Assembly: GCA_037144015.1 (NCBI GenBank)
Contig: JBAWXQ010000002.1
Location: forward strand, 1-46,244
Reading direction: 5' to 3'
From: a bacterium
Lineage (GTDB): Bacteria; Verrucomicrobiota; Kiritimatiellia; RFP12; CAIWXQ01
Length of the DNA stretch: 46,244 nucleotides
The notes beneath the pieces are model-generated. The model worked only from the letters and a program-made list of their open reading frames with translations, had not been told where the DNA came from and did no database searches. Shown here in pieces: positions 1 to 27,435 of this stretch (positions within the stretch are counted from its first letter, which is position 1; every line of letters starts with the position of its first letter). Both the position numbers and the translations under genes were made by a program.

Positions 1-913
1 TCCCCTGCTGTTTCAACGTCAGATTCAACTGTTGACTGGTGAAAACCCCGAAGATCGCCATGCCACCCGCCAGCGCGCCGATGCCGGCGATCAGGTAGAA
101 ATACCAGTAGAATCTGCAGGAGAATGACTCTTTGCCAATCGACTTGATCTTAGCGAAAAAGCCTTCGTACTTCTCTTCTTCCGGCGGAGGAGGATAAGAC
201 CCTTCCTTCACGCGCAGGCACATGATTCCCATGCCAATGAAATAGAGAATGGCCGCACCCGTGATGATCGGACGGAAGTAGGGGACCGAATGCTCGAACA
301 GAAACCAGTTATACACCCCGCTGGCGATGCTGCCCACGATCTTGAAATACCCATTGAAACGGCCCAGCATCTGGGGCGGCACGACATCATTGAAAAGGTA
401 CCAGTACACACAGTTGACGAATTGATCGAAGAATTGGAAGGACACCATAAAGAAGACGATCACCGCGACGGTAAGCGTGGCGGGCGTAAACGTGTGCGCA
501 AACGGCATCACGTGCTGGAGCCAGGCCCCAATCTCCCCGCTCCAGCCGATGCAGGCGAGGCTCAGGGCCTGAAACGGCAGGGTGTACCAGATGAACGGAA
601 TACGCCGGCCACGGGGACTGCGGTAGCGATCGCTCTTGTAACTAACCACGGTCCCCACCGTGATGTCAAAGATTCCCGGGATGGTGGTCATCACCAGGGA
701 CATCAACATGTTGGAGACGCCCAGATCCTTCAACTTCAGGGGCAGGATGTTGGGCAGCACGATCTCCATCATGGAGAAACAGAAATCACCCCACAGCAGC
801 CACCCGAACAGCGCGATCAGCGTCTTCCGCGTGTAGACTAGCGAGCCGCAGCGGTAAGTAGGTGCTGCGGAAGGTGAGGTTTCAGGACTTTGCTCGTGGG
901 GGGCTGCTGTCAA
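1..913 (-). CDS. MFS sugar transporter (3' part runs off the window)
   Basis: Not in the ORF track. Manual translation from TTG at 913 (GGAG 9 nt upstream, in-frame TGA just before) gives ...TYRCGSLVYTRKTLIALFGWLLWGDFCFSMMEIVLP... and ...MAIFGVFTSQQLNLTLKQQG at the window edge. Clear paralogue of the MFS at 7463-9964. Confidence 0.85.
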   Translation of the reverse strand, partial: MTAAPHEQSPETSPSAAPTYRCGSLVYTRKTLIALFGWLLWGDFCFSMMEIVLPNILPLKLKDLGVSNMLMSLVMTTIPGIFDITVGTVVSYKSDRYRSPRGRRIPFIWYTLPFQALSLACIGWSGEIGAWLQHVMPFAHTFTPATLTVAVIVFFMVSFQFFDQFVNCVYWYLFNDVVPPQMLGRFNGYFKIVGSIASGVYNWFLFEHSVPYFRPIITGAAILYFIGMGIMCLRVKEGSYPPPPEEEKYEGFFAKIKSIGKESFSCRFYWYFYLIAGIGALAGGMAIFGVFTSQQLNLTLKQQG

Positions 914-3398: not shown

Positions 3399-5702
3399 TC
3401 ACCGGTCCGTAATATCCTCGAATGACGATTCCGGGTCGCCGCACATCCGGTCGCGCTGGTAAAACTGGTCCTTGCCGATCGCCTTGCGGCTCTTCCGCGT
3501 GACAAACAGTTTCACCACCGCACAGTTGATGTAGTCCGGCAGGGGCACCGCGATGAACGTGCCGTCGAACTTGACCGGCACCTCGCGCCACGTCAGGTCA
3601 CCCGGATACATGATGCCAACCTTCCCGACATCGTGCCCGCGCTGTACCCGGAAAAGCGCATACGGGGTTTTGGCGTACTTCATCTGGTCACCGGCATCCA
3701 CGTTCTTATTGATAATGCCCGCGACATATCCATCTGCCACGGTGAAGAGTTTGCCGATCGACCCCTTGGGCGCACGCAGCGGATCCTGCTCGAAACACAG
3801 CACCCGGCGCCCAAACTGCGCGAAGATCGGCAGATACCGCTGATAGAGCACACCTTCCTCATCCGTCGGCTTGTACGAACAGGTCGGGTAGCAGCCGTGC
3901 AGCACGCAGCGGCGCAGGCATTCGTCCGGGCTCATGCCGGAATTCGAGCCCCACATGTAGAAGAGGGGGTTTGCGATGGACGCCCAGAAGAACTTCTCCT
4001 CGTACATGTCGCCATCGCCCTCGAGCAGCTGGCCGTCGCAGTAGCGCATGGAGCGGATGCTCATGGGCTTGTTGGCGAACGACGTGAGGTTCCGCGGCTT
4101 CATGATCTTGGTCTTGATGATGCGCTCGATCTCGTCGTAGCTGTGGTTCATGCTGTAGCAGGGCTTGCCGTTGACCACGGTCGTGCCGTCGTCGTGCGCG
4201 AAGTCGATCTCGTAGTGCCGGAAACAGTCCAGGAAGAAGCCGTCCAGCAGACTGCCGTAGTCGTCGAAGATCTTCCTGGCCGACTCAATGGTGAACTTCC
4301 CGAATGACCAGCGCGGATCGGCGTTCATGTTGTGGCTCATGTACCAGCCGCTGGGCATGGGGGAACCGTCCTCGTTCCTGGCGATGGAGTCGGGGAAGTT
4401 CTTTTCAACATACGGCCGGTAGCCGTCGGTGTAGTTGAAGTACCAGTGGTTGGAAATGCCGTGCTTCTTCAGCGTGGCGAGCCGACGCTTCAGGTCGGCG
4501 CGCTCGTGGTACCAGGAGGCTCGGAAGGCGTCGCCGGCGGAATCGGCGCCGGCCTCGGGCTTGAAGCCGCAGGCGACCAGGCATTCCTCCGCGGTGTGGC
4601 TGGCGATATACTCCTCCGACACCTCGGGCGTAACCTCCTCGGCCTTGCGCCCCTCCGCGACAGCCTGGCGGCGCAGCGCCTGCCAGAGCGCTTCCTTGCT
4701 GCGGGGCCAGCGGTCCTTTCCGTCCTGGTAGTAGTCGCCGTAATGCTCGAAGTGGCCGTGGACCTCAAAGGTCTTGAGTCCGCAGGCGGTCAGCTTTTCG
4801 ACGTGCTCGTCCACATAAGCGGTGCCGCAGAGGAAGGTGCCTTCGCGGTCATAGATGGCCTTGTTGAAGGGATCGAAGAACTCCTGCCAACGTTTGTAGA
4901 CCTGGCCCAGCCCCGGGCGCCAGTCGCCCGCATGGAAGAAGAGCATGACCTTGGTCTTCATCGGACGGTCCTTGACGAGGCCGATGTAGTAGTTCACCGC
5001 CTCAAGCACCGGCGCGGTCCTGGCGTCCTTCGCCATAGAGCCCCAGTTGTAGCACTTCTCCATGTTGTTGAAACCGAACTTGGCCGCGGGCACATTGGCG
5101 TCGATCGGCTCGACCATGGAGTAGCCGACGCCGAGTTGCCGGCTATAGTGGCTGACCATGGGCAGGATGATCTCCTGCTCCGAGACATACGGGATCTGGG
5201 TGTACATGAACTCGAAGGGGGTCATGCCGTCGAAGGCCTGTTCGCCCCACTTGCACGGCGCCCAGACGTTCCAGCCGGCGATGAGCGGGAACATGAAGTA
5301 GACGCGCAGCGACCGGTCGGCCACCTTCTGGTTGTTTTTCCGCGCCGCCACTTCCCAGTGGAAGGAATCCGCCTCCATGCGCAGGGTGACCTTCAGCGTG
5401 AAGGGCGCCCCCTGAAAACGCTTGTCGAATGAAATCGCCTGGCCCCGCTTTTTCAGGTTGCGAACCAGGGGTTTCGATTCCAGGTCGCTGTACATCACGC
5501 GGTCGTGCTCGTCGTAGACCCGGAGGCCGCCGACGTAGCCGGGGATTCCGCCGCGCACCTGCTGAAAAAGGTCTACGTTGTTATTGCGCCAGGTGCAGCC
5601 GCGAATCAGGCCGGTGGTTTTCTCCACGGCAATCCGGGCATCGGCGTTTGCGATGAATACGCAAGTGTCTTTGGAGAGTTGGAACGGTGTCTTGGTTTTC
5701 AT
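3399..5702 (-). CDS. Hypothetical protein, probable glycoside-hydrolase-like (beta-sandwich + TIM barrel)
   Basis: 767 aa with coding-like GC3 bias; aromatic-rich; GFFLDCF motif reminiscent of barrel nucleophile strands; no signal peptide. Family not recognised. Confidence 0.7.
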   Translation of the reverse strand: MKTKTPFQLSKDTCVFIANADARIAVEKTTGLIRGCTWRNNNVDLFQQVRGGIPGYVGGLRVYDEHDRVMYSDLESKPLVRNLKKRGQAISFDKRFQGAPFTLKVTLRMEADSFHWEVAARKNNQKVADRSLRVYFMFPLIAGWNVWAPCKWGEQAFDGMTPFEFMYTQIPYVSEQEIILPMVSHYSRQLGVGYSMVEPIDANVPAAKFGFNNMEKCYNWGSMAKDARTAPVLEAVNYYIGLVKDRPMKTKVMLFFHAGDWRPGLGQVYKRWQEFFDPFNKAIYDREGTFLCGTAYVDEHVEKLTACGLKTFEVHGHFEHYGDYYQDGKDRWPRSKEALWQALRRQAVAEGRKAEEVTPEVSEEYIASHTAEECLVACGFKPEAGADSAGDAFRASWYHERADLKRRLATLKKHGISNHWYFNYTDGYRPYVEKNFPDSIARNEDGSPMPSGWYMSHNMNADPRWSFGKFTIESARKIFDDYGSLLDGFFLDCFRHYEIDFAHDDGTTVVNGKPCYSMNHSYDEIERIIKTKIMKPRNLTSFANKPMSIRSMRYCDGQLLEGDGDMYEEKFFWASIANPLFYMWGSNSGMSPDECLRRCVLHGCYPTCSYKPTDEEGVLYQRYLPIFAQFGRRVLCFEQDPLRAPKGSIGKLFTVADGYVAGIINKNVDAGDQMKYAKTPYALFRVQRGHDVGKVGIMYPGDLTWREVPVKFDGTFIAVPLPDYINCAVVKLFVTRKSRKAIGKDQFYQRDRMCGDPESSFEDITDR

Positions 5703-5762: not shown

Positions 5763-7466
5763 TTACGTCAACGGGAAAGCGTCGGGGAAAGAGAGATTGG
5801 CAATGGCGCGCTGCCCGGCGGGGCTGGCCCGGAGGCGCGTCAGGTTGCGGATGAAGCGCTCGACATAGCGGGACATCCGCCCCAGCGTGGGCCGGTCCGC
5901 GGGGAAGACCCCGCGCTCGATGCCATACTGCATGAGCAGGTATGAACTCCAGTCGCGCACCAGCAGAATGTATTCGGCGAAGTCCTGGTAGCCGTCGTGG
6001 ATCTCGCCGTAGAGCGCCGACGACATGGCGTCGCGCGCCACCTCCAGCGCCGCGAGGTGGGCGCAGGCGCCGTCATAGGCGGCGTGCTTCATCGCGATCA
6101 GGCCCTCGAGCAGCTCGCGCGTCGGCTTGGCCATGGCGTAGGGGAAGTCGGGCTGGATGAAGCCGTCGAAGGTCCAGTACAGCTTGGTGGTGTGCAGCGA
6201 GGCGAAGGGCATGCGGTTCTGGATGCCGCGGCCCCACTGGATGCCCTCGCTGGCGAGCCGGTCCGCATCGAGCAGGGCGTCGACCACGACCTGCGGCTGC
6301 GGCGCGCCGAACTCCTGCTCCAGCCAGGCCGCCACCAGCGCGGCATCGCTGCGTGCGTCGCCCTTGGCGAGCTGCTCGAGCAGCCAGGTGTTCATGCGTC
6401 CAAGGTTGCCCTTTTCCGGATCGAGGCTGCGGTCGTTGTTCTCGACGTTGATCGGCAGCGACATGTATCCGCTGAGGCGGTGGTCGCGCGCCGCCTCATA
6501 GCCTTGGCGGATGTGCTTGATCTTGCACCACGGCCAGGGCTTCTTGTGGTACATCTCGAAGGATACCTCGATGATCTGCTCGCGCTCGGCCGGATAGCGG
6601 CCGAGCACGTGCGTCAGCGGGCTGCTGTCGTGGATGTCCATGCGTGTCGACTTGTACATCACCGGCACGTCGGCGGGCAGCAGTTTGAACAGCGCCGGCA
6701 GCACCGTCGCCGGGTCGTTGTACGGCTTGCCGACCGGGCAGAGGTAGCGGGTCGCGTCCTTCAGGCCGGTCAGCTCCTCGGCGAGGCGGTGGCCGTCACG
6801 GTAGTATTCCTCGGGGAAGTTGCGCCACCACAGGCGGCAGCAGACCTTGGCGGCGCTGCCCGCCTGGCGGATGCCCTCGCGCGCCGCCGCGATGTTTCTG
6901 GCCAGGCGCTCGGCCACCGGCATCTTCGCCTCGACCATGCACCAGTAGGTGGTGGCGATGTCGCCGGTGGTGATGATGAACATGCCGACCTCGGGGAAGG
7001 CCTCGGCGATCTCGCGGTACTTCGCCTGCATCAGCGTCCAGGTCGCCGGGTTGTCCGGATCGAAGCGGGTGTGCAGGTCGATGGTGCCATCCTGGGTCGG
7101 GCGCCTGTAGATGCCGACGAACTCTGGGTATTCCCGCTCGAAGACCAGGGGCAGCATCGGCTCGTAGAAATGGATGACCGGCTTGAGGCCCAGTGTCAGG
7201 GCGCGGGCGCACATGGCGCGGATGTGCTGGCGCAGCGGCTCGATCCATACGCTGTCGGCGCCATGGCGGATGGCCGCGACCTTGGGATAGGCGTCGAAGT
7301 AGATCGGGAATTCGTCCATGTCGCGGCCGCTGACCGGATCGCGCGCGAACCACAGGTGCGAGCACGGACCGACCGAGTAGATCACGGCCATGTTGGAGCC
7401 CACGCGGGCCGCCTGTTCCAGCGCGGCGGGCGACGGGGCATAATGAATGCGGTATTTGAAGTTCAT
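5763..7466 (-). CDS. Hypothetical protein, remote GH67-like TIM barrel
   Basis: 567 aa; ATGA overlap with the upstream MFS stop; YKSTRMDIHDSSP...QIIEVSFEMY loosely recalls the GH67 K-x-G-P-x-D-F...L-E-x-Q-I-T-Q-E-Y segment. Confidence 0.65.
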   Translation of the reverse strand: MNFKYRIHYAPSPAALEQAARVGSNMAVIYSVGPCSHLWFARDPVSGRDMDEFPIYFDAYPKVAAIRHGADSVWIEPLRQHIRAMCARALTLGLKPVIHFYEPMLPLVFEREYPEFVGIYRRPTQDGTIDLHTRFDPDNPATWTLMQAKYREIAEAFPEVGMFIITTGDIATTYWCMVEAKMPVAERLARNIAAAREGIRQAGSAAKVCCRLWWRNFPEEYYRDGHRLAEELTGLKDATRYLCPVGKPYNDPATVLPALFKLLPADVPVMYKSTRMDIHDSSPLTHVLGRYPAEREQIIEVSFEMYHKKPWPWCKIKHIRQGYEAARDHRLSGYMSLPINVENNDRSLDPEKGNLGRMNTWLLEQLAKGDARSDAALVAAWLEQEFGAPQPQVVVDALLDADRLASEGIQWGRGIQNRMPFASLHTTKLYWTFDGFIQPDFPYAMAKPTRELLEGLIAMKHAAYDGACAHLAALEVARDAMSSALYGEIHDGYQDFAEYILLVRDWSSYLLMQYGIERGVFPADRPTLGRMSRYVERFIRNLTRLRASPAGQRAIANLSFPDAFPLT

Positions 7467-9964
7467 GATGGGGTTTCGGGGTTGTGGTTGTTCGATTCCG
7501 GCGCCTTATATCCCTTGTCGCCGCCGAGTTTCAGCCATTCGCGATAGATGGCCAAGAGCACGGCCGCGTAACCAATGAACCCCACTGCCGTCACGATGTT
7601 GGCGTAGCGGAAGTTGTCGGTCAACAGGGTGCTGCGGGTGACCCAGTCCATGAACATGGCGCCCACGAGCCCGAGCACCACGGCCGAGCCCTGTTTGACC
7701 AGCCCGTTGGCAGAGCACATCTGACCGAACTTATCCTTGGGAAACAGCGAAATCAGAAAAGGCATGCTGGCCGCCCCGACCAGTCCGAAGAATGGCGTTT
7801 TGAAGACCTCGATCCAGACACTCGACTGGTAGTCGCGCATGAAGAAGTATGTCAGGAAGGGCGCGGGGATCAGGACGATCGAGCAGACCATCGTGACGCG
7901 CAGGGCGCCGTAACGGTCCACCAGGGCGCCAAACGGATAGGCCAGCAGAAGCCCGAGCACGCCGAAGAAGCTGGCCATCAGCCCACCTTTGAGCAGGCTG
8001 ACGCCGGCATCGATGTTCCATAGATGAAGGCGCCCTGTGTCGCTGGCGCAGACGATGCGGTTGCCGTGATCCGTCACGGCCAGTGCCGCGACCCCGCTCA
8101 TGTAGCCGGAGAAGGTCTTGAGGGACTGGTCGCCGGCCAGGGGACTGACATCCACCGGATCCCACAGGCGTCCGGAACTGTCCAGACTGCCGCTCACGAG
8201 CAGGTGCAGGTCCGGCTTGTACTGGACGGACGTGATGGCCTGCTTGTGGCCCTTCAGTTCCATCACCCGTTCACCGGTGGCCGCGGACCAGATGCGGAGT
8301 TTGGCGTTGCGGTCATCGCCCCCGTCATCCTGGCCACCGGTCACGATCCATCCGTCCGCAGCAACTACACGGCTGCGCTCGTTCGCTGGAATGTCATACA
8401 GGGATTCGTTCGAGAACACCTCCGTCAAGTAACGAATCGCAGTATTCAGGAACGGGATGGACGTGGGGCCTTGCTTGTGGACCGCGGCGACTTTCTCCAG
8501 GGAAGGGGCGAAGGTGGCAGCGTAGACCGGGTTCGAGGTCGCAATGGTCCGAGCCAGGATGCCGGATGCGGCGTCATACACGCGGAGCTGCCCGTCTACC
8601 CCGCCGGATACCAGATACCGACTGTCGCTGGAAAACACAACGCACCGCACCTCCCCCGCGTGCCCTGTCAGGGTCTCAAGGCAGCGGCCTGATGCCACAT
8701 CCCAGATGCGCACCGTCCCGTCCGCGCTGCCGGATGCCAGCCGGTCGCCGTCAGGGGATTCCGCTACGGTCAGGACGGCGCTGCCCTGTGTGGCCAAATT
8801 GGTCACAAGGGTTCCATCTGCCGCTCGCCACAGGAAGAGCCCGCCCGCACGATCACCTGCCGCGGCCAGGGATCCGTCCGCCGATAGCGCCGTGGCCGTC
8901 ACCGCAGGGCCGGTCGTGCGCAGCGTCCGCAGCGCCGGCAGTTTCGCCCGGCGCACGGCGTCCCAGAACGGCGCAGCGATCTTCTCCGGCCTGCCTTCCC
9001 AGAGCCGCACGCTGCCGTCGACGCCGCCGGAGAGGACGCGCGCGCCGTCCGGCGTCATGGCCGCCGTCGCCGCGCCCGCATGGGCTTCCGACGACGCCAC
9101 GTGTTGACCGAGGTGCAGGCCGAACACGCCGGACCCGCCGCCGGAGCGCGCGAACACCCAGACAAAGGTGGAGAGGTAGATCAAGATGAACATTCGGTGC
9201 GTAAAGCATTCGCGGGCGTACAGTTTCACCTGGTCAAGGAAAGTGGACTTCTCGGTAACATCCGTCACGGGCGGATACTCGCCCTCCTTCACGCGCCAGC
9301 ACATCAGCGAGAAACCCACGAAATAGAGTGCCGCCACGCCCACGTGGATCATGCGCATGTGGGTGAGTTGGTGGGCGGCGATGAGTACGTTGATCAGAAA
9401 GCCGGCCACGGCCCCGACCACGCGGAACAGCCCCATGAACCGGCCCATGAAATGCTCCGGCACCACGTCCGCGAACAGGTACCAGTAGACGGTGTTCACG
9501 AATTCGTTAAAGAACGAGAAGCCGATGACCAGGAAACTGATCAGCAGCATGGCCGTCGTAAAGGGGGAGATCAACCCCCCGCTGGCCACATGCGCCTTGG
9601 CAAAGGAGACGATCTCGTCCGAGTACCCAATAGCGGCGGCGAAGAAACAGAGGAACGGCGTGGTCCAGAGGATGTACGGGATGCGCCGGCCCATCCGGCC
9701 GCGATAGCGGTCGGACTTGAAACTCAGGATCGGGCCGACGATCACCCCGATCAGGTTCGGGATGACGCTGAAGATGATATTGACCTGCACGTTGCTCACG
9801 TGGAAGTTGTCCTGCAGGTAGAGCCCCAGGATGCCGGGACCGCCGATGCTCTCGAAGAGCGTGAAGCAGAAATCGCCCCAGAGCAACCAACCGAACAGCA
9901 TAAACAGCCCAGCCTTGGTGTAGGTCAGGGTGCCGACGCTGTACTTGGGATCTCGGTCGCTCAT
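7463..9964 (-). CDS. MFS transporter with inserted 7-blade WD40 propeller
   Basis: MFS motif SDRYRGRMGRRIPY and GALVDRYG, about 12 hydrophobic segments; seven WD repeats (e.g. SPDGDRLASGSADGTVRIWD, GHAGEV...VYD, GHKQAI...LWD) at about 8007-9105. Confidence 0.9.
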   Translation of the reverse strand: MSDRDPKYSVGTLTYTKAGLFMLFGWLLWGDFCFTLFESIGGPGILGLYLQDNFHVSNVQVNIIFSVIPNLIGVIVGPILSFKSDRYRGRMGRRIPYILWTTPFLCFFAAAIGYSDEIVSFAKAHVASGGLISPFTTAMLLISFLVIGFSFFNEFVNTVYWYLFADVVPEHFMGRFMGLFRVVGAVAGFLINVLIAAHQLTHMRMIHVGVAALYFVGFSLMCWRVKEGEYPPVTDVTEKSTFLDQVKLYARECFTHRMFILIYLSTFVWVFARSGGGSGVFGLHLGQHVASSEAHAGAATAAMTPDGARVLSGGVDGSVRLWEGRPEKIAAPFWDAVRRAKLPALRTLRTTGPAVTATALSADGSLAAAGDRAGGLFLWRAADGTLVTNLATQGSAVLTVAESPDGDRLASGSADGTVRIWDVASGRCLETLTGHAGEVRCVVFSSDSRYLVSGGVDGQLRVYDAASGILARTIATSNPVYAATFAPSLEKVAAVHKQGPTSIPFLNTAIRYLTEVFSNESLYDIPANERSRVVAADGWIVTGGQDDGGDDRNAKLRIWSAATGERVMELKGHKQAITSVQYKPDLHLLVSGSLDSSGRLWDPVDVSPLAGDQSLKTFSGYMSGVAALAVTDHGNRIVCASDTGRLHLWNIDAGVSLLKGGLMASFFGVLGLLLAYPFGALVDRYGALRVTMVCSIVLIPAPFLTYFFMRDYQSSVWIEVFKTPFFGLVGAASMPFLISLFPKDKFGQMCSANGLVKQGSAVVLGLVGAMFMDWVTRSTLLTDNFRYANIVTAVGFIGYAAVLLAIYREWLKLGGDKGYKAPESNNHNPETPS

Positions 9965-12696
9965 TTCTTATCCGTTCCTCTTCTCACCGCCTGGCAATAG
10001 AAGCACGAACAGGCGCCGTTGCGGCCGATGCTGATCATGGGGGTGGCGCGATTGACGGCCACGCTGATGTCGGCCATGGCCCGGGCGGACGCAAAGCAGA
10101 TGGTGCCGTCTCCCAGCGTAGCGGAGCGCATGACCCCCTGCTGCAGAAGGGGATCCGCCATGGTGGCTTGGAAGTGATCCACGTGCCATGGGGCCTGCGG
10201 CAGCGTGACGATGCGGCGGTGCCCGACCGAATCCTTGCGGTGCGCGATCAGCGAAGGCTGCGGGACACTAGTCCAAGCCTCGCCAACATGGAAGATGGTC
10301 GCACTGGTGATGGGGCACAGCAGCAGCACGTCGCCGCCCGCGTCGTATAACTTCCCCCAGAATCCGTCGCGGGCCATCGGCGCCGACTCGGGGTTCGACA
10401 GGCGGGTCAGTGCGCGAGCATCCGGTCCGAGGGCGGCGACCGAGTGCGTCGGGTGCGGGCTGCGGACGACCCCGGGATGCCGGAGGAAATACTCGCTGAC
10501 GGCGCCCACGACCGACCGCGAATGCTGCGGGTCGTAGGGTTCGGCGCCCAGCACGCTGAGCGAGTGCGTCGGAACACATAGGGTTCCCCGTGGGCCCAAC
10601 ACGTCCAGCAACGCCTCCACAAGCGTCTCCGCGCCGCCCGGAATATATCCGAACTGGCTCAGGGACGAATGCACGCACAGGACCGATCCGCGCCGCACGC
10701 CGATGGCCCGGAAGGCGCGGCGCAGTTCAGCCGCCTTCAGGATGGGGCGTAAGTGGGCCTTACCGATCTTGACCAGATAGCGGGTCAGCGCGACGGCCTT
10801 CTTCATTTCGATGACCGCGCCCTGGTCCCGGAGTGTGTCAACCGCCTCCGCGAGCGTTGCTTTACCGCGCAAACGCGAGGCCAACAGCCAGGCCCACGTT
10901 TCCGTGGACCACCCCGGCGCCAGATCGAGGGCCTCCGCCAACTCCGTGCGAGCGGCCGGTGTTACGTGGTCCTCGAAGGAGAGGAAACCGCGGAACGTTA
11001 CCTGGGGAACCAAGACCTCCGCTTCGCGCCGCACACGGTTTCTCTCGGACATCACAACCACTTTTCCCGCGGGCGCCGCGGGCAGCGCGGCGATCACTGA
11101 TTCCAGGCGCTTGCGATCTTCCACCGCGGGCCAGCACCCCGTGGACCGTCGGACCCCCGCTTTGTACACGTCCGCGGGGGTGCGCCAGTCGCCAAACAGG
11201 TCGGGAACCGCCATGCCTCGCCGTAGCGAATCCAATTCCGCTGCGGCCTGTGCCCAGATCGTCGCAGCCTCAGTCGGCTTCACCCGCATGGCCCCGGCGG
11301 CACTTCGCACAAGGCGCCGCGCCAGGTCAATGGCCGCCCGGTTGTCAAACCGCGTGATGGCATGCAGGAAGGCGGTCGCCGCCATCCCCGACCAGCGGAT
11401 GGCGTCCAGGCTAAGGAATGCGGGAACGTCCGCGGAACTGTGGTAGGTTGGCCCTGTCTTCTGCTCGAGCGACACGTGGCCGGGCGCCGGACTGAGGCCG
11501 AGCAAGGCGTCGCTGACGCCGCACGGCCGCGAGCGGATGGGCCTGTTGCCCGTTCGCTTGTCGGCGAGGCGGGCGGCGGCCTCCAGAAGGTACGGCGCGA
11601 AGTGCGACTGCCCTGGAAAGCCACGACCGAGGGTCATGACACTTCCCTGCGTCTCCGGGTCGGGCTCACAGCCGACCATGTCCAGGTTCAGCCCGGCCAG
11701 GAAGCCCGGAACACGCTTTCGACTGTTTAACCACGCCTGCATGCCCCGCACTTCCACGGAAAAGAAGACGCGGATCGCACGCCGGGGCGGCTTGCCACCC
11801 GGTCCGCGCGTCGCGGCTTGCAGCGCGCGCAGGGCCTCGATCGCCACGCCGACTCCCGAGGCATTGTCCTGCGCGCCCGGCTCGTCCAGGTGCGCGCAGA
11901 GGTAGACCTCGGGCTGTCCCTGTCCGAGCGTGGCGGTGACCAGCGGAGCCTTGCCGGCCGCGCGTTCGGCCTGCACCCTTGCCCGCAGGTGAAGAGCCGG
12001 TTCGGTTTGCAGCAGCGCTTTCAGCCGCGCGCCCGCGGCGGGCGACAGGGAGAAGCAGGGCACGCAGGCCCGGTCGGCGTCCATGGGGACAGCATAATTG
12101 ACATAACGGGCCGCCTTGGGGTCATTGTTCGGCATGCAGACGATCACGCCCAGTGCGCCGGAACCGGCCGCCGTTTCGTTGATTTCGGCCGAGCCCATGC
12201 CCGACTCCAGGAACAGAAAGGCGCCGCGCAACCGGCTCTGGACCGACACCGCGTCCGGCGCAGCCACCACCGATCCCTCAACCCAGTCGCCATGTGGCGT
12301 GCCGGGACTATACAGGGCGAGACTCTGGGGAATCTCACCGTAGTCCGCCAACGTTTCCACGCCTTGCCCGGGAATGCGGACCTCCAGACGGGCCTCTGTC
12401 GCGGTCCAGGCCACCGGCATCAGCCAGCCGCCGAACGACGTCTTGCCGTCGGCCGGTATTTCCTCGATCGTGACGCCGTCCAGGCCGGCTTCCCGCAGTT
12501 CACTGGCGACGAATTCAGCGGCGGCACGAACGGCTTTCGCGTCTATCAGCCGCGCGGCTTCCCATAGGCGCCGGATCGTTTCCATGGCGCGTTTGGGCCG
12601 GAATGCCTCCGTGGCGGCAATGGTCTCGGGCGTCAGTGGAATCTGAACGTCTCTTTGCTGCAAACCTTGTTTGCTTTTATTCATATGCTTTTCCAT
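9961..12696 (-). CDS. M28/DUF4910-like peptidase fused to AAC(3)-family N-acetyltransferase
   Basis: M28 motifs CAHLDEPGAQDNASG, LNLDMVG, YHSSAD; AAC(3)/YokD motifs VHSSLSQFG, GTLCVPT, RSPHPTHSVAALG, TIFHVGE. Start may be 12684. Confidence 0.85.
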   Translation of the reverse strand: MEKHMNKSKQGLQQRDVQIPLTPETIAATEAFRPKRAMETIRRLWEAARLIDAKAVRAAAEFVASELREAGLDGVTIEEIPADGKTSFGGWLMPVAWTATEARLEVRIPGQGVETLADYGEIPQSLALYSPGTPHGDWVEGSVVAAPDAVSVQSRLRGAFLFLESGMGSAEINETAAGSGALGVIVCMPNNDPKAARYVNYAVPMDADRACVPCFSLSPAAGARLKALLQTEPALHLRARVQAERAAGKAPLVTATLGQGQPEVYLCAHLDEPGAQDNASGVGVAIEALRALQAATRGPGGKPPRRAIRVFFSVEVRGMQAWLNSRKRVPGFLAGLNLDMVGCEPDPETQGSVMTLGRGFPGQSHFAPYLLEAAARLADKRTGNRPIRSRPCGVSDALLGLSPAPGHVSLEQKTGPTYHSSADVPAFLSLDAIRWSGMAATAFLHAITRFDNRAAIDLARRLVRSAAGAMRVKPTEAATIWAQAAAELDSLRRGMAVPDLFGDWRTPADVYKAGVRRSTGCWPAVEDRKRLESVIAALPAAPAGKVVVMSERNRVRREAEVLVPQVTFRGFLSFEDHVTPAARTELAEALDLAPGWSTETWAWLLASRLRGKATLAEAVDTLRDQGAVIEMKKAVALTRYLVKIGKAHLRPILKAAELRRAFRAIGVRRGSVLCVHSSLSQFGYIPGGAETLVEALLDVLGPRGTLCVPTHSLSVLGAEPYDPQHSRSVVGAVSEYFLRHPGVVRSPHPTHSVAALGPDARALTRLSNPESAPMARDGFWGKLYDAGGDVLLLCPITSATIFHVGEAWTSVPQPSLIAHRKDSVGHRRIVTLPQAPWHVDHFQATMADPLLQQGVMRSATLGDGTICFASARAMADISVAVNRATPMISIGRNGACSCFYCQAVRRGTDKK

Positions 12697-24649: not shown

Positions 24650-27406
24650 TCATTCCACTCTCAACGTTCCAAACTTCACCGGCTGGTGGCTGCTGCCCTC
24701 GGTCAGCGACCACTGCGAACTTTCACCGTCGGCATTGCGTACACGGCCGGCGTTAAAGCCAATCTCGGCACCCGGCTTGGGTTGCCCCATCAGGCCCAGC
24801 GTGGCCCATGGAATGCGGACCTCTACGGCCCACCCCTCTGGCGTGCGCTTGGCAGCGGCAGTCCAGTCCCCATTCCACGCCTTGTCGCCGTTGCGGCCGT
24901 CGTAGAGCATGCCGCCGGCAGAAACCGCGAAGTGGCGCTCCTCGCCGCTGCCCTTGACCGGCTCCACAAAAAACTCGATGCAGTCATCCTGCCAGACCTG
25001 ATCCGCGTCACGAGCATCTGCTTTGGCCACGATCGACTCCGGCTTCGGTTCCGGGCAGATGGCTGACAAGAACAGCGCATCCGGCCCCGCCAACGCAAGA
25101 ACCCGGGTGGCAACCTCCGATGCTCCGCTGCCGTTCTCCTTTTGAAACCCTGCGATCACGCCAGCCATCTTCCACGCCGCCTCGTCCGGCGCGCCGTTCG
25201 GTGTTCCGATTGCGGCACTCCGCGGCAGGGCTGCTTTCGGCCGCGCCGGGAGCGCCACCGTCAGTTTCGGCAGCAACGTCTCCGGCTGCATCATCGCCTG
25301 CGCTTCGATGCGTGAGATGACGGTCTTACCATCCGGAGCCACCACCACGATCGCGGGTACGCCCTCGACCCCGAACTCTGCCACTTTCTTTGGATACCGC
25401 TCCGCATCCACCTTCACCACCAGCATCTCGCCCAGAGCCTTGACCACGCGATCGTCCTTGAACGTGGTGGCCTCAACTTTCTTGCAGATGCCGCAGGTCT
25501 GCATGTAGAAGCGCATGACCAGCGGACGTTTCGTCAGCGCGGCCTGCTGCAGCGCCTGCTCAAGATCTTCGCCGGGCCGCGGGGCATAGGTCGGCGCCGG
25601 AGCCGCGCCGCGATAGGCAATCACCAGGGCCGGACGGAACGGGTAGTCGCCCTGCTCGCTGGACGCAATAGAACCACCGCCCATACCGCGCATCTGAAGC
25701 AAGATGCCGTAATTCGGCCGCGTCCCGGCTTGCCAGGCCTTGACCAGATCGGTCAGGACCAGGTCTACGAACCGAACGAGTTCGTTTCTGGCTTTGTCAG
25801 GGTAGCCGCGCATGGCTGTCGTGCTGCCGGCCGGTTTTGCATCCCGGTCAATCCCTTCACCCGCCGCGCCCTCCTGTGCCCACTTCTCAGAACGGAGTTT
25901 TCCACGGAAACGCGGACCGAACCAGCAGGCATAGCCATCCGGATTGTCCTGACACTCGTTCCAGGGCCGGCATAGGGCGTACGCCTCGAGGGTGTCGTTG
26001 GTTCCATAGGGTGCCCCCCCTTCGCCGCCACCGATCAGCGTCAGACGCAACCGCGCTCCGAGGATCGCAGTCTCCTTCGGCACGCCGGACAGGTCGAAGC
26101 GCAGGAGCGACCGGTTATCCGCGTAGTTCCACGGGCGGACACCGACGTAGAGCGCCGCATCCGTGCCGGTGTTGGCGTGACGCGCATCCCAGTCGCGGTT
26201 GTTCGGCAGCAACGTCGTGTCGGTCGCGGCGGCCGGAATCACGCGCTCCCCGTCGCGCAGCGTCGCGCGCTCGGCGGCGGTGTCAGCCCGGCGCAGGGTT
26301 GCGAATGTGGCATCAGGGAACTGCTGTTGCAAGGCCGAAAAGGCGGGATCGGCTACCGGGTTCGTCTCGAACGGATTCTCCACGGTCACCGGCCACACAA
26401 AATCCGCGCAACCGCCGAGTTCAGGCACCCGCAGCATGCGCACCACCACCTCGTGCGCGCCCGAAGGCACGCGGGAGGGCAGGATCATCTGCGGTGCAAA
26501 CCCGCCCGCACAGGGGCAGGAGTCACCGAACGGGATGATCTCCCGGAGTTGCCGCGTCGCGGGATCAAGGACGCGCAGCAGGACGATGGGGTATCCGGCC
26601 TTGCCCCAGCGGTTGTCCCGCACGGCCGCGGCCAGGGACGGGAACTTCGACCCGTAAAAGCGCAACTGCGCCCCCTCGGGCGTTCCGTGCAGCGCAAGCC
26701 ACACCGACGCGGCGACATTTTCGCCGGCCTTCCAGGTCCCGAGCGCTTCGCCCGCATGCTTGCCGTTCACGGTTGGGATCGGCTCGCCGCCGAACTTGTA
26801 CACCGGAGCGGTCGCAAGCGAACTGCCCCACAGGAGCTTGAGTTCACCAGGCAGGAGCCCGACATCGTAACTCAGCGCGGGTGAGGACATTCTGAAGGCG
26901 GAGTCGTACTCGATCACATCGGGTTTGTACACACCGGCAAAGCGGAAGGAGTAGACATGGTCGGAGCCGATCTCCTTGACGTTTTCCACCAGATAGCGTT
27001 CGTGCCGATCCTTTTCCTCCGTCCGCTTGGCCGGCTCGTTGCTCCAGAAGAAGCGCTCGCCCTCCTCGCCCAGAACGCCATTCAGGTTGGTGTCGGCGTA
27101 GAGTGTGTCATAGCCCTTGCCTGTGCCCTCCGACTCGTCCCACGCCAGGGTCATCACGGAACTCCGGCCGTTACCCAGGACAAAGATGCAGTAACGCACG
27201 TTGGCGGAGACATAGGCGGGTTCCTTCGGGCGTTTGCGCGGAACCCATGCCAGATCCGGCGGAATGAATGACGTCACGCGCGGGTACTCGGTCGGCGCGG
27301 CAGGGGCCAGCATCGGCATCAGGCAGGCTAGGGCTGTCAATGACAGGACGAATCGGTTTCGTCGGGGGGATTGATGCGTTTTGTTGTGCCGAATGGGCAT
27401 ATTCAC
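24650..27406 (-). CDS. Secreted multidomain protein: DNRLRE + thioredoxin-like (CGIC) + CBM9-like
   Basis: GTG start after AAGGA; signal peptide; RSLLRFDLSGVP (DNRLRE); FYMQTCGICKK...GVEGVPAI (Trx); DQVWQDDCIEFFV...GWAVEVRIPW (CBM9-like). Confidence 0.8.
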   Translation of the reverse strand: MNMPIRHNKTHQSPRRNRFVLSLTALACLMPMLAPAAPTEYPRVTSFIPPDLAWVPRKRPKEPAYVSANVRYCIFVLGNGRSSVMTLAWDESEGTGKGYDTLYADTNLNGVLGEEGERFFWSNEPAKRTEEKDRHERYLVENVKEIGSDHVYSFRFAGVYKPDVIEYDSAFRMSSPALSYDVGLLPGELKLLWGSSLATAPVYKFGGEPIPTVNGKHAGEALGTWKAGENVAASVWLALHGTPEGAQLRFYGSKFPSLAAAVRDNRWGKAGYPIVLLRVLDPATRQLREIIPFGDSCPCAGGFAPQMILPSRVPSGAHEVVVRMLRVPELGGCADFVWPVTVENPFETNPVADPAFSALQQQFPDATFATLRRADTAAERATLRDGERVIPAAATDTTLLPNNRDWDARHANTGTDAALYVGVRPWNYADNRSLLRFDLSGVPKETAILGARLRLTLIGGGEGGAPYGTNDTLEAYALCRPWNECQDNPDGYACWFGPRFRGKLRSEKWAQEGAAGEGIDRDAKPAGSTTAMRGYPDKARNELVRFVDLVLTDLVKAWQAGTRPNYGILLQMRGMGGGSIASSEQGDYPFRPALVIAYRGAAPAPTYAPRPGEDLEQALQQAALTKRPLVMRFYMQTCGICKKVEATTFKDDRVVKALGEMLVVKVDAERYPKKVAEFGVEGVPAIVVVAPDGKTVISRIEAQAMMQPETLLPKLTVALPARPKAALPRSAAIGTPNGAPDEAAWKMAGVIAGFQKENGSGASEVATRVLALAGPDALFLSAICPEPKPESIVAKADARDADQVWQDDCIEFFVEPVKGSGEERHFAVSAGGMLYDGRNGDKAWNGDWTAAAKRTPEGWAVEVRIPWATLGLMGQPKPGAEIGFNAGRVRNADGESSQWSLTEGSSHQPVKFGTLRVE

Positions 27407-27435
27407 GTTGCGTTTTCCTTTGTGTACGTGGTTCG

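Follow-up and report, generated by a model that had tools for sequence, protein, structure and literature searches.

The 833-residue protein described here is a 12-helix MFS transporter with a complete seven-bladed WD40 propeller in the loop between TM7 and TM8. Its gene lies in the window, the whole stretch of DNA analysed (46,244 nucleotides). The gene is real and intact, and the transporter core retains its invariant motifs.

Architecture and integrity of the protein

Both parts of the protein are recognised by Pfam profiles. WD40 (PF00400) matches with an E value of 1.4e-43 and 145.9 bits against a cut-off of 27, and MFS_1 (PF07690) with an E value of 4.1e-14 and 52.7 bits against a cut-off of 33.4. 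The PF07690 match is split into two stretches, one on each side of the WD40 region. The AlphaFold2 model, built on an alignment of 77 rows, has a pLDDT of 91.9 and a pTM of 0.90. In this model the helices TM1 to TM7 extend to residue 283, followed by 28 strands (288–650) and then by TM8 from residue 657. The model and hydropathy together give the 12 TM helices of an MFS protein, in a 6+6 arrangement with a long cytoplasmic TM6-TM7 loop. TM7 is modelled as two helices (257–272 and 279–283), with the kink at a Gly-rich stretch. Motif A of the MFS has a D-R-x-x-x-G-R-R-like sequence located between TM2 and TM3, and its residues D85, R88, G92, R93, and R94 are invariant here in 77 of 77 aligned rows.

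The 28 strands form seven four-stranded blades in which the order d-a-b-c occurs seven times, giving a velcro-closed propeller where the first strand d completes the last blade; this description of closure, like the definitions of the faces used below, follows PMC3419727. The propeller is therefore complete with seven repeats, as had been claimed from the sequence. Its bounds (Table 1) replace the 8007–9105 given previously, corresponding to residues 287–653. The similarity to solved WD40 domains is close, with a Foldseek TMt of 0.91 to 5yzv_B and VIA Z scores of 39–41 at an rmsd of about 2 A over 284–292 residues. PkwA of Thermomonospora curvata (5yzv), WDR5, and WDR61 likewise have seven blades, velcro closure, and WD40 repeats (Z of 39–40 against 5yzv, 3ow8, and 5m23). 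The propellers of these proteins are soluble or C-terminal, however, whereas this one is periplasmic and internal, interrupting a polytopic membrane protein, and its two bottom-face insertions add about 80 extra residues in all.

Table 1. Positions in the window of the MFS-WD40 gene, its parts, and the genes discussed with it
Feature	Position	Strand	Extent	Remarks
MFS transporter with inserted WD40 propeller, whole gene	7463..9964	(-)	833 aa	4-nt overlap with each neighbour, upstream and downstream
MFS N-half	9116..9964	(-)	residues 1-283	TM1-TM6, cytoplasmic loop 6-7, kinked TM7
Seven-bladed WD40 propeller	7997..9115	(-)	residues 284-656 (373 residues)	in periplasmic TM7-TM8 loop
MFS C-half	7466..7996	(-)	residues 657-833	TM8-TM12 and cytoplasmic tail
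First blade insertion	8936..8995	(-)	residues 324-343	c-d (bottom) loop after blade 1
Second blade insertion	8375..8491	(-)	residues 492-530	a-b (bottom) loop of blade 5, helix 504-516
Family motif F-x-N-E-S-L-Y	8396..8416	(-)	residues 517-523	inside blade-5 insertion
Downstream gene	5763..7466	(-)	567 aa	4-nt overlap; GH67/GH138-like fold
Upstream gene	9961..12696	(-)	911 aa	4-nt overlap; M28 peptidase-like and AAC(3)-like acetyltransferase domains
Insert-less paralogue, same MFS family	2..913	(-)		41% identity over residues 5-288

The metagenome-assembled genome to which the window belongs is fragmented (440 contigs) and the insert has a higher GC content than the rest of the gene (0.69 versus 0.61), both of which would fit an assembly chimera or pseudogene, in which an MFS gene has been misjoined to, or broken by, a WD40 gene. 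Such a difference in GC is, however, the expectation for hydrophobic helices compared with a soluble domain, and the gene is a single open frame with zero stops. Both junctions, on which the earlier reading depended, are bridged without indels by independent contigs from other sequencing runs: the N-junction by runs of three studies (X2, X3, and X6) and the C-junction by runs of two (X2 and X6). There is a second MFS-WD40 copy in the same genome, and 51 relatives span the whole protein, 50 of them aligned with the same insertion point. The probability of an artefact is therefore negligible.

A family with a single insertion point

The 51 full-length relatives, found in NCBI, JGI, ENA, and Logan assemblies, have query coverage of at least 97% and identities of 39–76%. 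The insertion point is identical in the 50 that were aligned. The TM7-TM8 loop is 360–465 residues long in 51 of 51 insert-bearing proteins, compared to 6–7 residues in 26 of 26 insert-less relatives, and in a tree made from the MFS-only columns one branch splits the 51 insert-bearing from the 26 insert-less rows (SH-aLRT 95). On this comparison of sequences, the MFS-WD40 architecture is shown to be a conserved family trait with a single insertion point. Together with the Pfam matches and the AlphaFold2 model, the 51-member alignment bears out the proposal in the earlier note that a WD40 propeller interrupts a 12-TM MFS at TM7-TM8. The insert-less paralogue within the window had been used there as an internal control. 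It does show TM7, but the contig start cuts the gene after 304 aa, leaving just the beginning of the TM8 region. As a control it is therefore incomplete, and the 26 insert-less relatives are the appropriate one.

The family comprises at least 64 clusters at 90% identity, with one-, two-, and three-propeller forms, all in the same loop. It is rare, two phylum samples having yielded it in 1 of 300 and 1 of 400 genomes, and the MFS-WD40 records are named as Planctomycetota and Verrucomicrobiota. All four genomes found with the architecture carry two copies. Existing annotations are solely ‘MFS transporter’ or ‘WD40 repeat protein’. No published description of the architecture was found, in agreement with the earlier impression that it was uncharacterised, but with a family of this size the protein is not unique; the supplementary lists of prokaryotic WD40 proteins in PMC5587647 might include members. 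The combination of MFS and WD40 was absent among the cluster rows listed from the ESM Atlas (clusters of at least 50 members), so the family is not large there. Likewise, no PDB chain covering both the MFS and a propeller was among the matches listed from a profile search (best 60 of 889) or from fold searches. A 221-aa junction-spanning search of a library of 1.84 billion representatives recovered only P0034, P0011, and P0021 end-to-end among the 150 matches listed, which were swamped by giant multi-WD40 proteins and hence give no family count. Two candidate members were rejected: L048, taken for a long form, is two tandem insert-less genes, and a 692-aa frame on contig C31 encodes an MFS extended at its N- and C-termini, with no loop insert. 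A sister group has about 490 aa of repeats in another outward loop, TM3-TM4; elsewhere such repeats belong to large proteins carrying Calx-beta, SLH, or dockerin domains.

The SLC45/plant sucrose transporters (AtSUC1, PDB 8bb6) and the GPH symporters (MFS_2, TC 2.A.2) are distant relatives of the MFS core and are sugar-related, as is the genomic context here. SUC1 was the sole match of an insert-less family member to PDB sequences (E 4.3e-05), and the best NCBIfam match was TIGR01301 GPH_sucrose (E 1.9e-07). PF13347 is recorded for many relatives, and the nearest ESM Atlas clusters among those listed are named SLC45 or MFS_2. Insert-less protein P0069 scores far short of the curated cut-offs, with 30.3 bits against 511 for TIGR01301 and 17.1 against 231 for TIGR00792, and the paralogue in the window scores 25.5 bits with PF13347, where the cut-off is 27. 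For the 833-residue protein (P0001), PF13347 was absent among the 25 of 43 families listed. As judged by the TIGR00792, TIGR01301, and PF13347 models, the protein is a distant relative of the GPH/sucrose symporters and not a member of them. No SLC45, sucrose, or GPH transporter is known to have a folded domain in the TM7-TM8 loop.

Folded domains on the outer face of an MFS protein, as here, are present in mammalian PepT1/2, between TM9 and TM10 and extracellular, and in SLC22, between TM1 and TM2; these are eukaryotic and differ in both loop and fold. The closest analogue is SV2A (also SV2B and SV2C), in which the large folded domain LD4 occupies the same non-cytoplasmic loop as the propeller, that from TM7 to TM8. 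As set out in PMC11026379, TM7 of SV2A runs directly into LD4, and LD4 is the binding site for a protein ligand. SV2A is eukaryotic, however, and LD4 is a beta-helix, whereas the insert here is a WD40 propeller, and LD4 is linked to TM8 by a flexible loop, whereas both links here are 4–6 residues. The likeness is one of design and not of family membership, and homology between the inserts is not expected.

Location and orientation of the propeller

The predicted inside segments contain 22 K+R residues, compared to 6 in the five short outside loops. This charge distribution, together with MFS topology, places the propeller in the periplasm. The earlier note had placed the TM7-TM8 loop on this side, which is supported by the charges, motif A, and the 12 helices. 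A cytoplasmic propeller would require an inverted or non-canonical topology, with TM7 not spanning the membrane. Characterised bacterial WD40 domains are mostly within cytoplasmic signalling proteins and the TM7 helix is broken in the model, both of which would suit this arrangement. It is, however, very improbable. The 6–7-residue TM7-TM8 link of the insert-less relatives demands a membrane-spanning hairpin, the positive-inside count is 22 to 6, the motif-A-like loops that follow TM2 and TM8 would be on the wrong side, and the model is of a normal 6+6 MFS. Bacterial WD40 domains in cytoplasmic signalling proteins are also covered in PMC5587647.

The propeller is joined to TM7 by 4 residues and to TM8 by 6 in the AlphaFold2 model, and the propeller and transporter are confidently modelled as one rigid body, as the pTM indicates. 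Contact between the two is suggested by strand order, linker length, and pTM. In this arrangement the bottom face, with the F-x-NESLY insertion, is probably towards the periplasmic surface of the transporter, and the top face would point into the periplasm.

Conservation within the propeller is on the bottom face and in blades 5–7, adjoining the transporter. Pairwise identity is 0.44 for blades 5–7 and 0.37 for blades 1–4, versus 0.53 for the MFS. Every letter of F-x-N-E-S-L-Y other than x is conserved at 0.8 or above in 51 proteins, and an A-x-D-Q motif in a c-d loop is also conserved; this motif and the bottom-face insertion both adjoin the junction. Two amphipathic blade insertions had been described previously and both exist, but only that at residues 492–530 is helical and a family feature. 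The insertion at residues 324–343 is lineage-specific, with a mean majority frequency of 0.18, and is non-helical in the model. The predicted top-face hot-spots are variable and mostly A/G/S/T in blades 1–4, and conserved but small (A, T, S) in blades 5–7, a pattern that, from the sequences, is not typical of a conserved protein-binding face. There are 31 clade-specific MFS positions, of which 7 are in outward loops and 4 at the junctions. The outward-loop excess is modest and the sequences are related, making these positions only suggestive of co-adaptation.

Several of these features are those of a gating or regulatory cap, in which the propeller would be seated directly at the periplasmic end of TM7, with its conserved bottom-face elements shutting or adjusting the outward-facing vestibule. 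Its role would be to control access or the transport cycle, perhaps on a signal from the periplasm, rather than capture. The features in question are the short linkers, the conserved bottom-face insertion and A-x-D-Q motif at the junction, the clade-specific residues in the outward loops of both MFS halves, the pTM of 0.90, and the kink of TM7 at a Gly-rich stretch. Gating by the outer half of TM7 is a feature of sugar porters. Such a role is nonetheless rather doubtful, as two- and three-propeller forms in the same loop are hard to explain by gating alone and a rigid body bridging both MFS halves would hinder the rocker-switch movement.

Genomic context and possible role

The 833-aa gene lies in a glycan-breakdown operon. 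GH42, GH94, sulfatase, GDSL, CBM9, and GH123-like genes are found in its context, and glycan or sulfatase genes adjoin MFS-WD40 copies at two other loci. The downstream 567-aa protein, a cytoplasmic GH67/GH138-like neighbour, has no signal peptide by eye and no Pfam or NCBIfam family. The upstream 911-aa protein has a 52%-identical paralogue on contig C4, encoded upstream of the other MFS-WD40 copy. The loci compared (the window, C4, two G253 loci, G301, and G312) have no neighbouring gene that is common to them all. Those of the window that recur at the C4 locus of the same genome are the 911-aa, 767-aa, 951-aa, and GH42-like genes only. The two G253 loci and G312 have none of them, and G301 has only a GH42-like match. 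A conserved neighbour as the partner of the propeller was therefore rejected, recurrence being confined to the genome's own C4 locus, bar the match at G301. In a promoter scan, promoter-like sites were no commoner than in shuffled sequence (3 versus 3.3).

The reading preferred here, although it is tentative and somewhat short of probable, is that the propeller is a capture or docking module, mounted rigidly on the periplasmic side of an oligosaccharide:proton symporter. The transporter would be a symporter-like MFS of a freshwater bacterium, with a canonical WD40 propeller spliced into the short periplasmic TM7-TM8 hairpin loop. The bottom face, including the blade-5 F-x-NESLY insertion, would be seated on the periplasmic surface of the transporter with the top face outward, and what the propeller holds at the transporter mouth would be either a glycan fragment or a periplasmic partner specific to the lineage. 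Exported enzymes of the same gene cluster may release products that are imported through the MFS-WD40 transporter and then broken down by cytoplasmic glycosidases encoded beside its gene. The two- and three-propeller forms in the same loop and the TM3-TM4 repeats of the sister group suggest a binding-module theme. Capture and docking, the two roles that the earlier note had put forward as possible, are complicated by the conservation of the bottom face and blades 5–7, the variable top face, and the lack of a conserved neighbour.

A more specific possibility, which is unlikely, is that the propeller is a substrate receptor, which would bind a glycan fragment, or else the enzyme releasing that fragment, and pass it on to the MFS cavity beneath. 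TRAP/TTT-type transporters, which depend on a separate periplasmic substrate-binding protein of the DctP or TctC type, would be a functional analogy. The propeller would then be one case of a wider habit among these MFS sugar importers of placing extracytoplasmic binding modules in outward loops. If so, the protein would combine a secondary transporter with its own counterpart of a periplasmic binding protein, one that can be enlarged to two or three propellers, and the gain of outward-loop modules by these importers would be hitherto unrecognised.

The propeller could instead bind no ligand and have a structural or positional role, in folding, stability, oligomerisation, or placement in the envelope through contact with the wall or outer membrane or through pairing of paralogues. 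The two copies in all four genomes, the variable outward surface, and the multi-propeller forms, which could be spacers, are compatible with this. It is nevertheless quite unlikely, since the copy pairs do not form two consistent ancient clades, with one pair being a recent tandem duplicate, and a propeller is evidently dispensable to the insert-less relatives, one of which is in the same operon. An obligate heterodimer of two ancient paralogues was rejected for want of a consistent two-clade pairing in the tree.

The usual view of bacterial MFS transporters is of minimal machines that are self-contained. It is chiefly in animal proteins, among them SV2, the function of which is itself still debated, that folded domains are known within the outward loops. 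With a rigid propeller at the periplasmic mouth, a conserved bacterial family would offer a tractable way to study the gain of a receptor or docking function by a secondary transporter, and a route to how the glycan degraders of these phyla couple periplasmic breakdown to import. An apparently rigid, natural 40-kDa soluble domain on a 50-kDa MFS would also be a built-in fiducial for cryo-EM. The MFS-WD40 design, rare and uncharacterised, may provide a simple transporter with a capture or docking domain of its own.

The propeller insertion

The gene at 7463–9964 (minus strand) is a single open frame of 833 codons. Its product matches MFS_1 in two stretches, one at each end of the protein (Pfam, 52.7 bits against a cut-off of 33.4), with WD40 repeats between them (145.9 bits, cut-off 27). 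In the AlphaFold2 model (mean pLDDT 91.9, pTM 0.90) helices TM1 to TM6 and a cytoplasmic loop are followed by a kinked TM7 (257–272 and 279–283), by 28 beta-strands within residues 288–650 that make up seven four-stranded blades, and by TM8, which starts at 657, with helices continuing to TM12. A complete seven-bladed propeller between TM7 and TM8, read from the sequence in the earlier note, is present in the model, and the limits given there (8007–9105) differ by a few codons from those in the table. Residues ~282–654 resemble solved seven-bladed WD40 domains, with Foldseek matching 5yzv_B (TMt 0.91) and VIA-align superpositions on 2ymu, 3ow8, 5m23 and 5yzv giving Z of 39–41 and an rmsd of ~2 Å over 284–292 residues. 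No chain among the listed Foldseek matches in the PDB covers both the MFS and the propeller (TMq ≤0.33), and the best 60 of 889 matches in a PDB profile search are all soluble WD40 proteins, none combining the two.

The query was aligned with 50 full-length relatives and 26 relatives lacking the insert, drawn from NCBI, JGI, ENA and Logan assemblies. All 51 insert-bearing rows have 360–465 residues at one identical point, where the 26 insert-less rows each have 6 or 7. Four metagenome runs from freshwater or lakes, the likely source sample being excluded, supplied Logan contigs that were mapped on the gene. Both junctions are covered by contigs of other runs: the N-junction (~9112) in X2, X3 and X6, which come from three studies, and the C-junction (~8002) in X2 and X6. 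No indels are reported in the contigs placed on the gene. The shared insertion point and the junction-spanning contigs make a chimera or pseudogene very unlikely, and an artefact of this kind has a negligible probability and is nearly excluded. The presence of the propeller in the MFS gene is confirmed. The paralogue at 2–913, named in the earlier note as an internal control, is consistent with this and is incomplete, since the contig start cuts it after 304 residues, leaving TM7 and just the first residues of the TM8 region. Judged from the alignment, the real control for a short TM7–TM8 loop is the set of 26 insert-less relatives.

Topology, orientation and conservation

Hydropathy gives the 6+6 helix pattern expected for an MFS protein. 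K+R number 22 in the predicted cytoplasmic segments and 6 in the five short loops facing outwards. All 77 rows share an invariant arginine-rich loop after TM2 (D85, R88, G92, R93, R94) and an invariant D683 after TM8. MFS loops after TM2 and TM8 face the cytoplasm. A link of 6–7 residues, as in the insert-less relatives, allows a TM7–TM8 membrane hairpin on the outer side only. From this hairpin and the topology evidence, the periplasmic location of the propeller proposed in the earlier note is well supported. A cytoplasmic propeller would demand a broken MFS fold and is highly improbable, to the point of being nearly excluded. Conservation of the transporter core is 0.70 and 0.58 with the insert and 0.65 and 0.55 without it; this equal conservation argues for a working transporter.

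The strand order of the modelled propeller is d-a-b-c seven times, the first strand completing the last blade. By the standard definition (PMC3419727), loops d-a and b-c make up the top face of a WD40 domain, and loops a-b and c-d its bottom face. Starting with strand d and ending with strand c, the propeller has both termini on its bottom face. The linkers are 4 residues to TM7 (284–287) and 6 residues to TM8 (651–656). The bottom face would therefore rest against TM7 and TM8 at their periplasmic ends, with the top face pointing into the periplasm. Two amphipathic blade insertions had been described in the earlier note. Both exist, in bottom-face loops: residues 492–530 (a-b loop, blade 5) contain a helix (504–516) and the family motif F-x-N-E-S-L-Y, and residues 324–343 (c-d loop) are neither conserved (0.18) nor helical.

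Mean pairwise identity among the 51 proteins is 0.53 in the MFS, 0.44 in blades 5–7 and 0.37 in blades 1–4. Conservation within the propeller is highest in blade 6 at G-H-K-x-A (d-a loop, 0.87) and at Y-K, where strand a ends; in A-x-D-Q, on the c-d loop preceding blade 7; in G-Y-T, on the d-a loop of blade 7; and in F-x-NESLY. Top-face hot spots, placed by the definition in PMC3419727, are variable and mainly A/G/S/T in blades 1–4, with R at the R1 position of blade 3 in 22/51 and N at that of blade 4 in 23/51. Those of blades 5–7 are conserved (P479 40/51, A576 45/51, T626 42/51, S641 44/51) and small except for one Tyr (Y481, 39/51). There are 31 clade-specific MFS positions, at which the insert-bearing proteins are conserved (≥0.85) and the insert-less ones differ; 7 fall in outward loops 1–2, 3–4 and 5–6, and another 4 at the junctions. 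The excess, a modest one among related sequences, may hint that the outer face has co-adapted.

Distribution and neighbouring genes

The family search scored 7999 candidates. Among the best 120 of 1302 matches, 51 have a query coverage of ≥97% (39–76% identity, 817–929 aa), six are truncated and seven are longer. By BLAST, the TM7–TM8 loop of six of the longer proteins (1088–1382 aa) contains either two propellers (P0015, P0029) or three (P0020, P0021, P0027, P0028); in the seventh, P0064, the propeller comes with a large extra segment. The relatives are named 'MFS transporter' (Planctomycetota, Verrucomicrobiota, 'bacterium') or 'WD40 repeat protein' at source, and one locus is in a MAG titled Victivallis vadensis. 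A related group within the same MFS family (P0097, P0120, P0280, P0283, P0298, P0302) instead carries ~490 residues in the outward TM3–TM4 loop; their homologues are repeats from large proteins in which Calx-beta, SLH or dockerin domains also occur.

In a quick IQ-TREE of MFS-only columns one branch (SH-aLRT 95) parts the 51 insert-bearing proteins from the nearest 26 insert-less proteins returned by the search, and a full-length FastTree agrees. A single gain, or a single loss, of the propeller would be enough. With a junction-spanning query of 221 residues (E ≤1e-20; just 7 candidates scored in some genomes), two samples of other genomes each gave one genome with the architecture, one among 300 from the window's phylum and one among 400 from the phylum of G301, to which a locus titled Planctomycetota had led. 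The architecture is absent from the ESM Atlas cluster rows among the matches listed. By these searches the architecture is rare.

Each of the four genomes with the architecture has exactly two copies, on separate contigs in the window's genome (C2 and C4) and in G253 (C133 and C459), and in tandem in G301 (C5) and G312 (C56). In the full-length FastTree the copies of a pair are not consistently divided between two ancient clades, and the pairs do not reflect a consistent ancient duplication. In the G301 assembly frame breaks interrupt both copies (L098 6940–9454, 3 breaks; 10071–12564, 1 break), as a result of either sequencing error or decay. The window's genome also has a third MFS-family paralogue (contig C31, L005 685–2718, minus strand, 677 aa) without a loop insert, with an N-terminal extension of ~130 residues containing a hydrophobic segment and with extra C-terminal hydrophobic segments.

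The gene overlaps each neighbour by 4 nt inside a long minus-strand array. By Pfam the window encodes two GH42, two GH94, a sulfatase, two GDSL esterases, and CBM9, CBM96 and GH123-like proteins. Signal peptides were seen by eye in the GH123-like, 495-aa, GDSL, CBM and second GH42-like proteins; the genes directly flanking the transporter are without one. Neither the 567-aa protein encoded downstream nor the 767-aa protein has a match in Pfam, NCBIfam or a PDB sequence search. The former is modelled confidently (AlphaFold2 pLDDT 92.2), with a fold like that of GH67 alpha-glucuronidases and of BP0997, a GH138 enzyme (E 3.5e-11 to 6.5e-11, TMq 0.51–0.58, about 12% identity); it has 90 relatives, mostly of 563–571 aa, and is a candidate for an unclassified glycoside hydrolase family. 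The 911-aa fusion directly upstream may, speculatively, target amino sugars in the glycan that is imported. Its 52%-identical paralogue (L090 4856–7531, minus strand) lies upstream of the second MFS-WD40 copy, on C4, which also adjoins paralogues of the 767-aa and GH94-like genes. One G253 copy is preceded by a GntR/LacI-type regulator, an FGE-sulfatase protein and an uncharacterised exported protein. The modules of the exported 929-aa protein are an unusual mix within a glycan cluster.

Coordinates of the propeller insert and of selected genes in the window
Feature	Residues	Window position	Strand	Basis or content
Propeller insert	284–656	7997–9115	-	alignment and model
767-aa protein		3399–5702	-	56%-identical paralogue in C4 locus
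567-aa protein, downstream gene		5763–7466	-	fold match only
911-aa fusion, directly upstream of MFS-WD40 gene		9961–12696	-	M28 peptidase-like and AAC(3)-like N-acetyltransferase domains
Exported 929-aa protein		24650–27439	-	thioredoxin-like, CBM96 and CBM9 modules

This glycan-gene context points to the transporter as an importer of glycan fragments. An insert-less family member matches SUC1 (8bb6) at E 4.3e-05 in a PDB sequence search and TIGR01301 at 30 bits, far under the cut-off; the MFS core is a distant relative of sucrose/SLC45-type symporters.

Role of the propeller

A full-text literature search for MFS with WD40 or beta-propeller returned nothing describing this architecture, and the terms MFS, major facilitator, transporter and periplasm never occur in the main text of a systematic study of prokaryotic WD40 proteins (PMC5587647). 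The nearest design analogue is SV2A, whose LD4 domain likewise separates TM7 from TM8 and serves to bind a protein ligand (PMC11026379). The two are alike in having the insert in the TM7–TM8 loop on the non-cytoplasmic side; however, LD4 is a beta-helix rather than a WD40 propeller, and SV2A belongs to a different kingdom.

A gating or regulatory cap would agree with such tight linkers and with the conservation of bottom-face elements. The multi-propeller forms do not fit such a cap, which is rather unlikely. A structural or positional role would agree with the variable surface and the two-copies pattern, and is improbable. The preferred reading, held tentatively and at a little under an even chance, is that of a capture or docking module. 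It is favoured by the use of propellers in general as scaffolds for binding, by the expansions to two and three propellers, and by the sister group with other extracytoplasmic repeats in a different outward loop. The bland, variable top face counts against it, as does the lack of a conserved neighbour gene at the loci compared. The interpretation in the earlier note is partly supported: the location is well founded, and capture or docking is a candidate role.

The MFS-WD40 protein is a rare, conserved and uncharacterised domain architecture. It is an intact, conserved MFS transporter whose periplasmic propeller, rigid in the model, is attached to TM7 and TM8 at their outer ends and may serve as a built-in capture or docking module at the transporter mouth.
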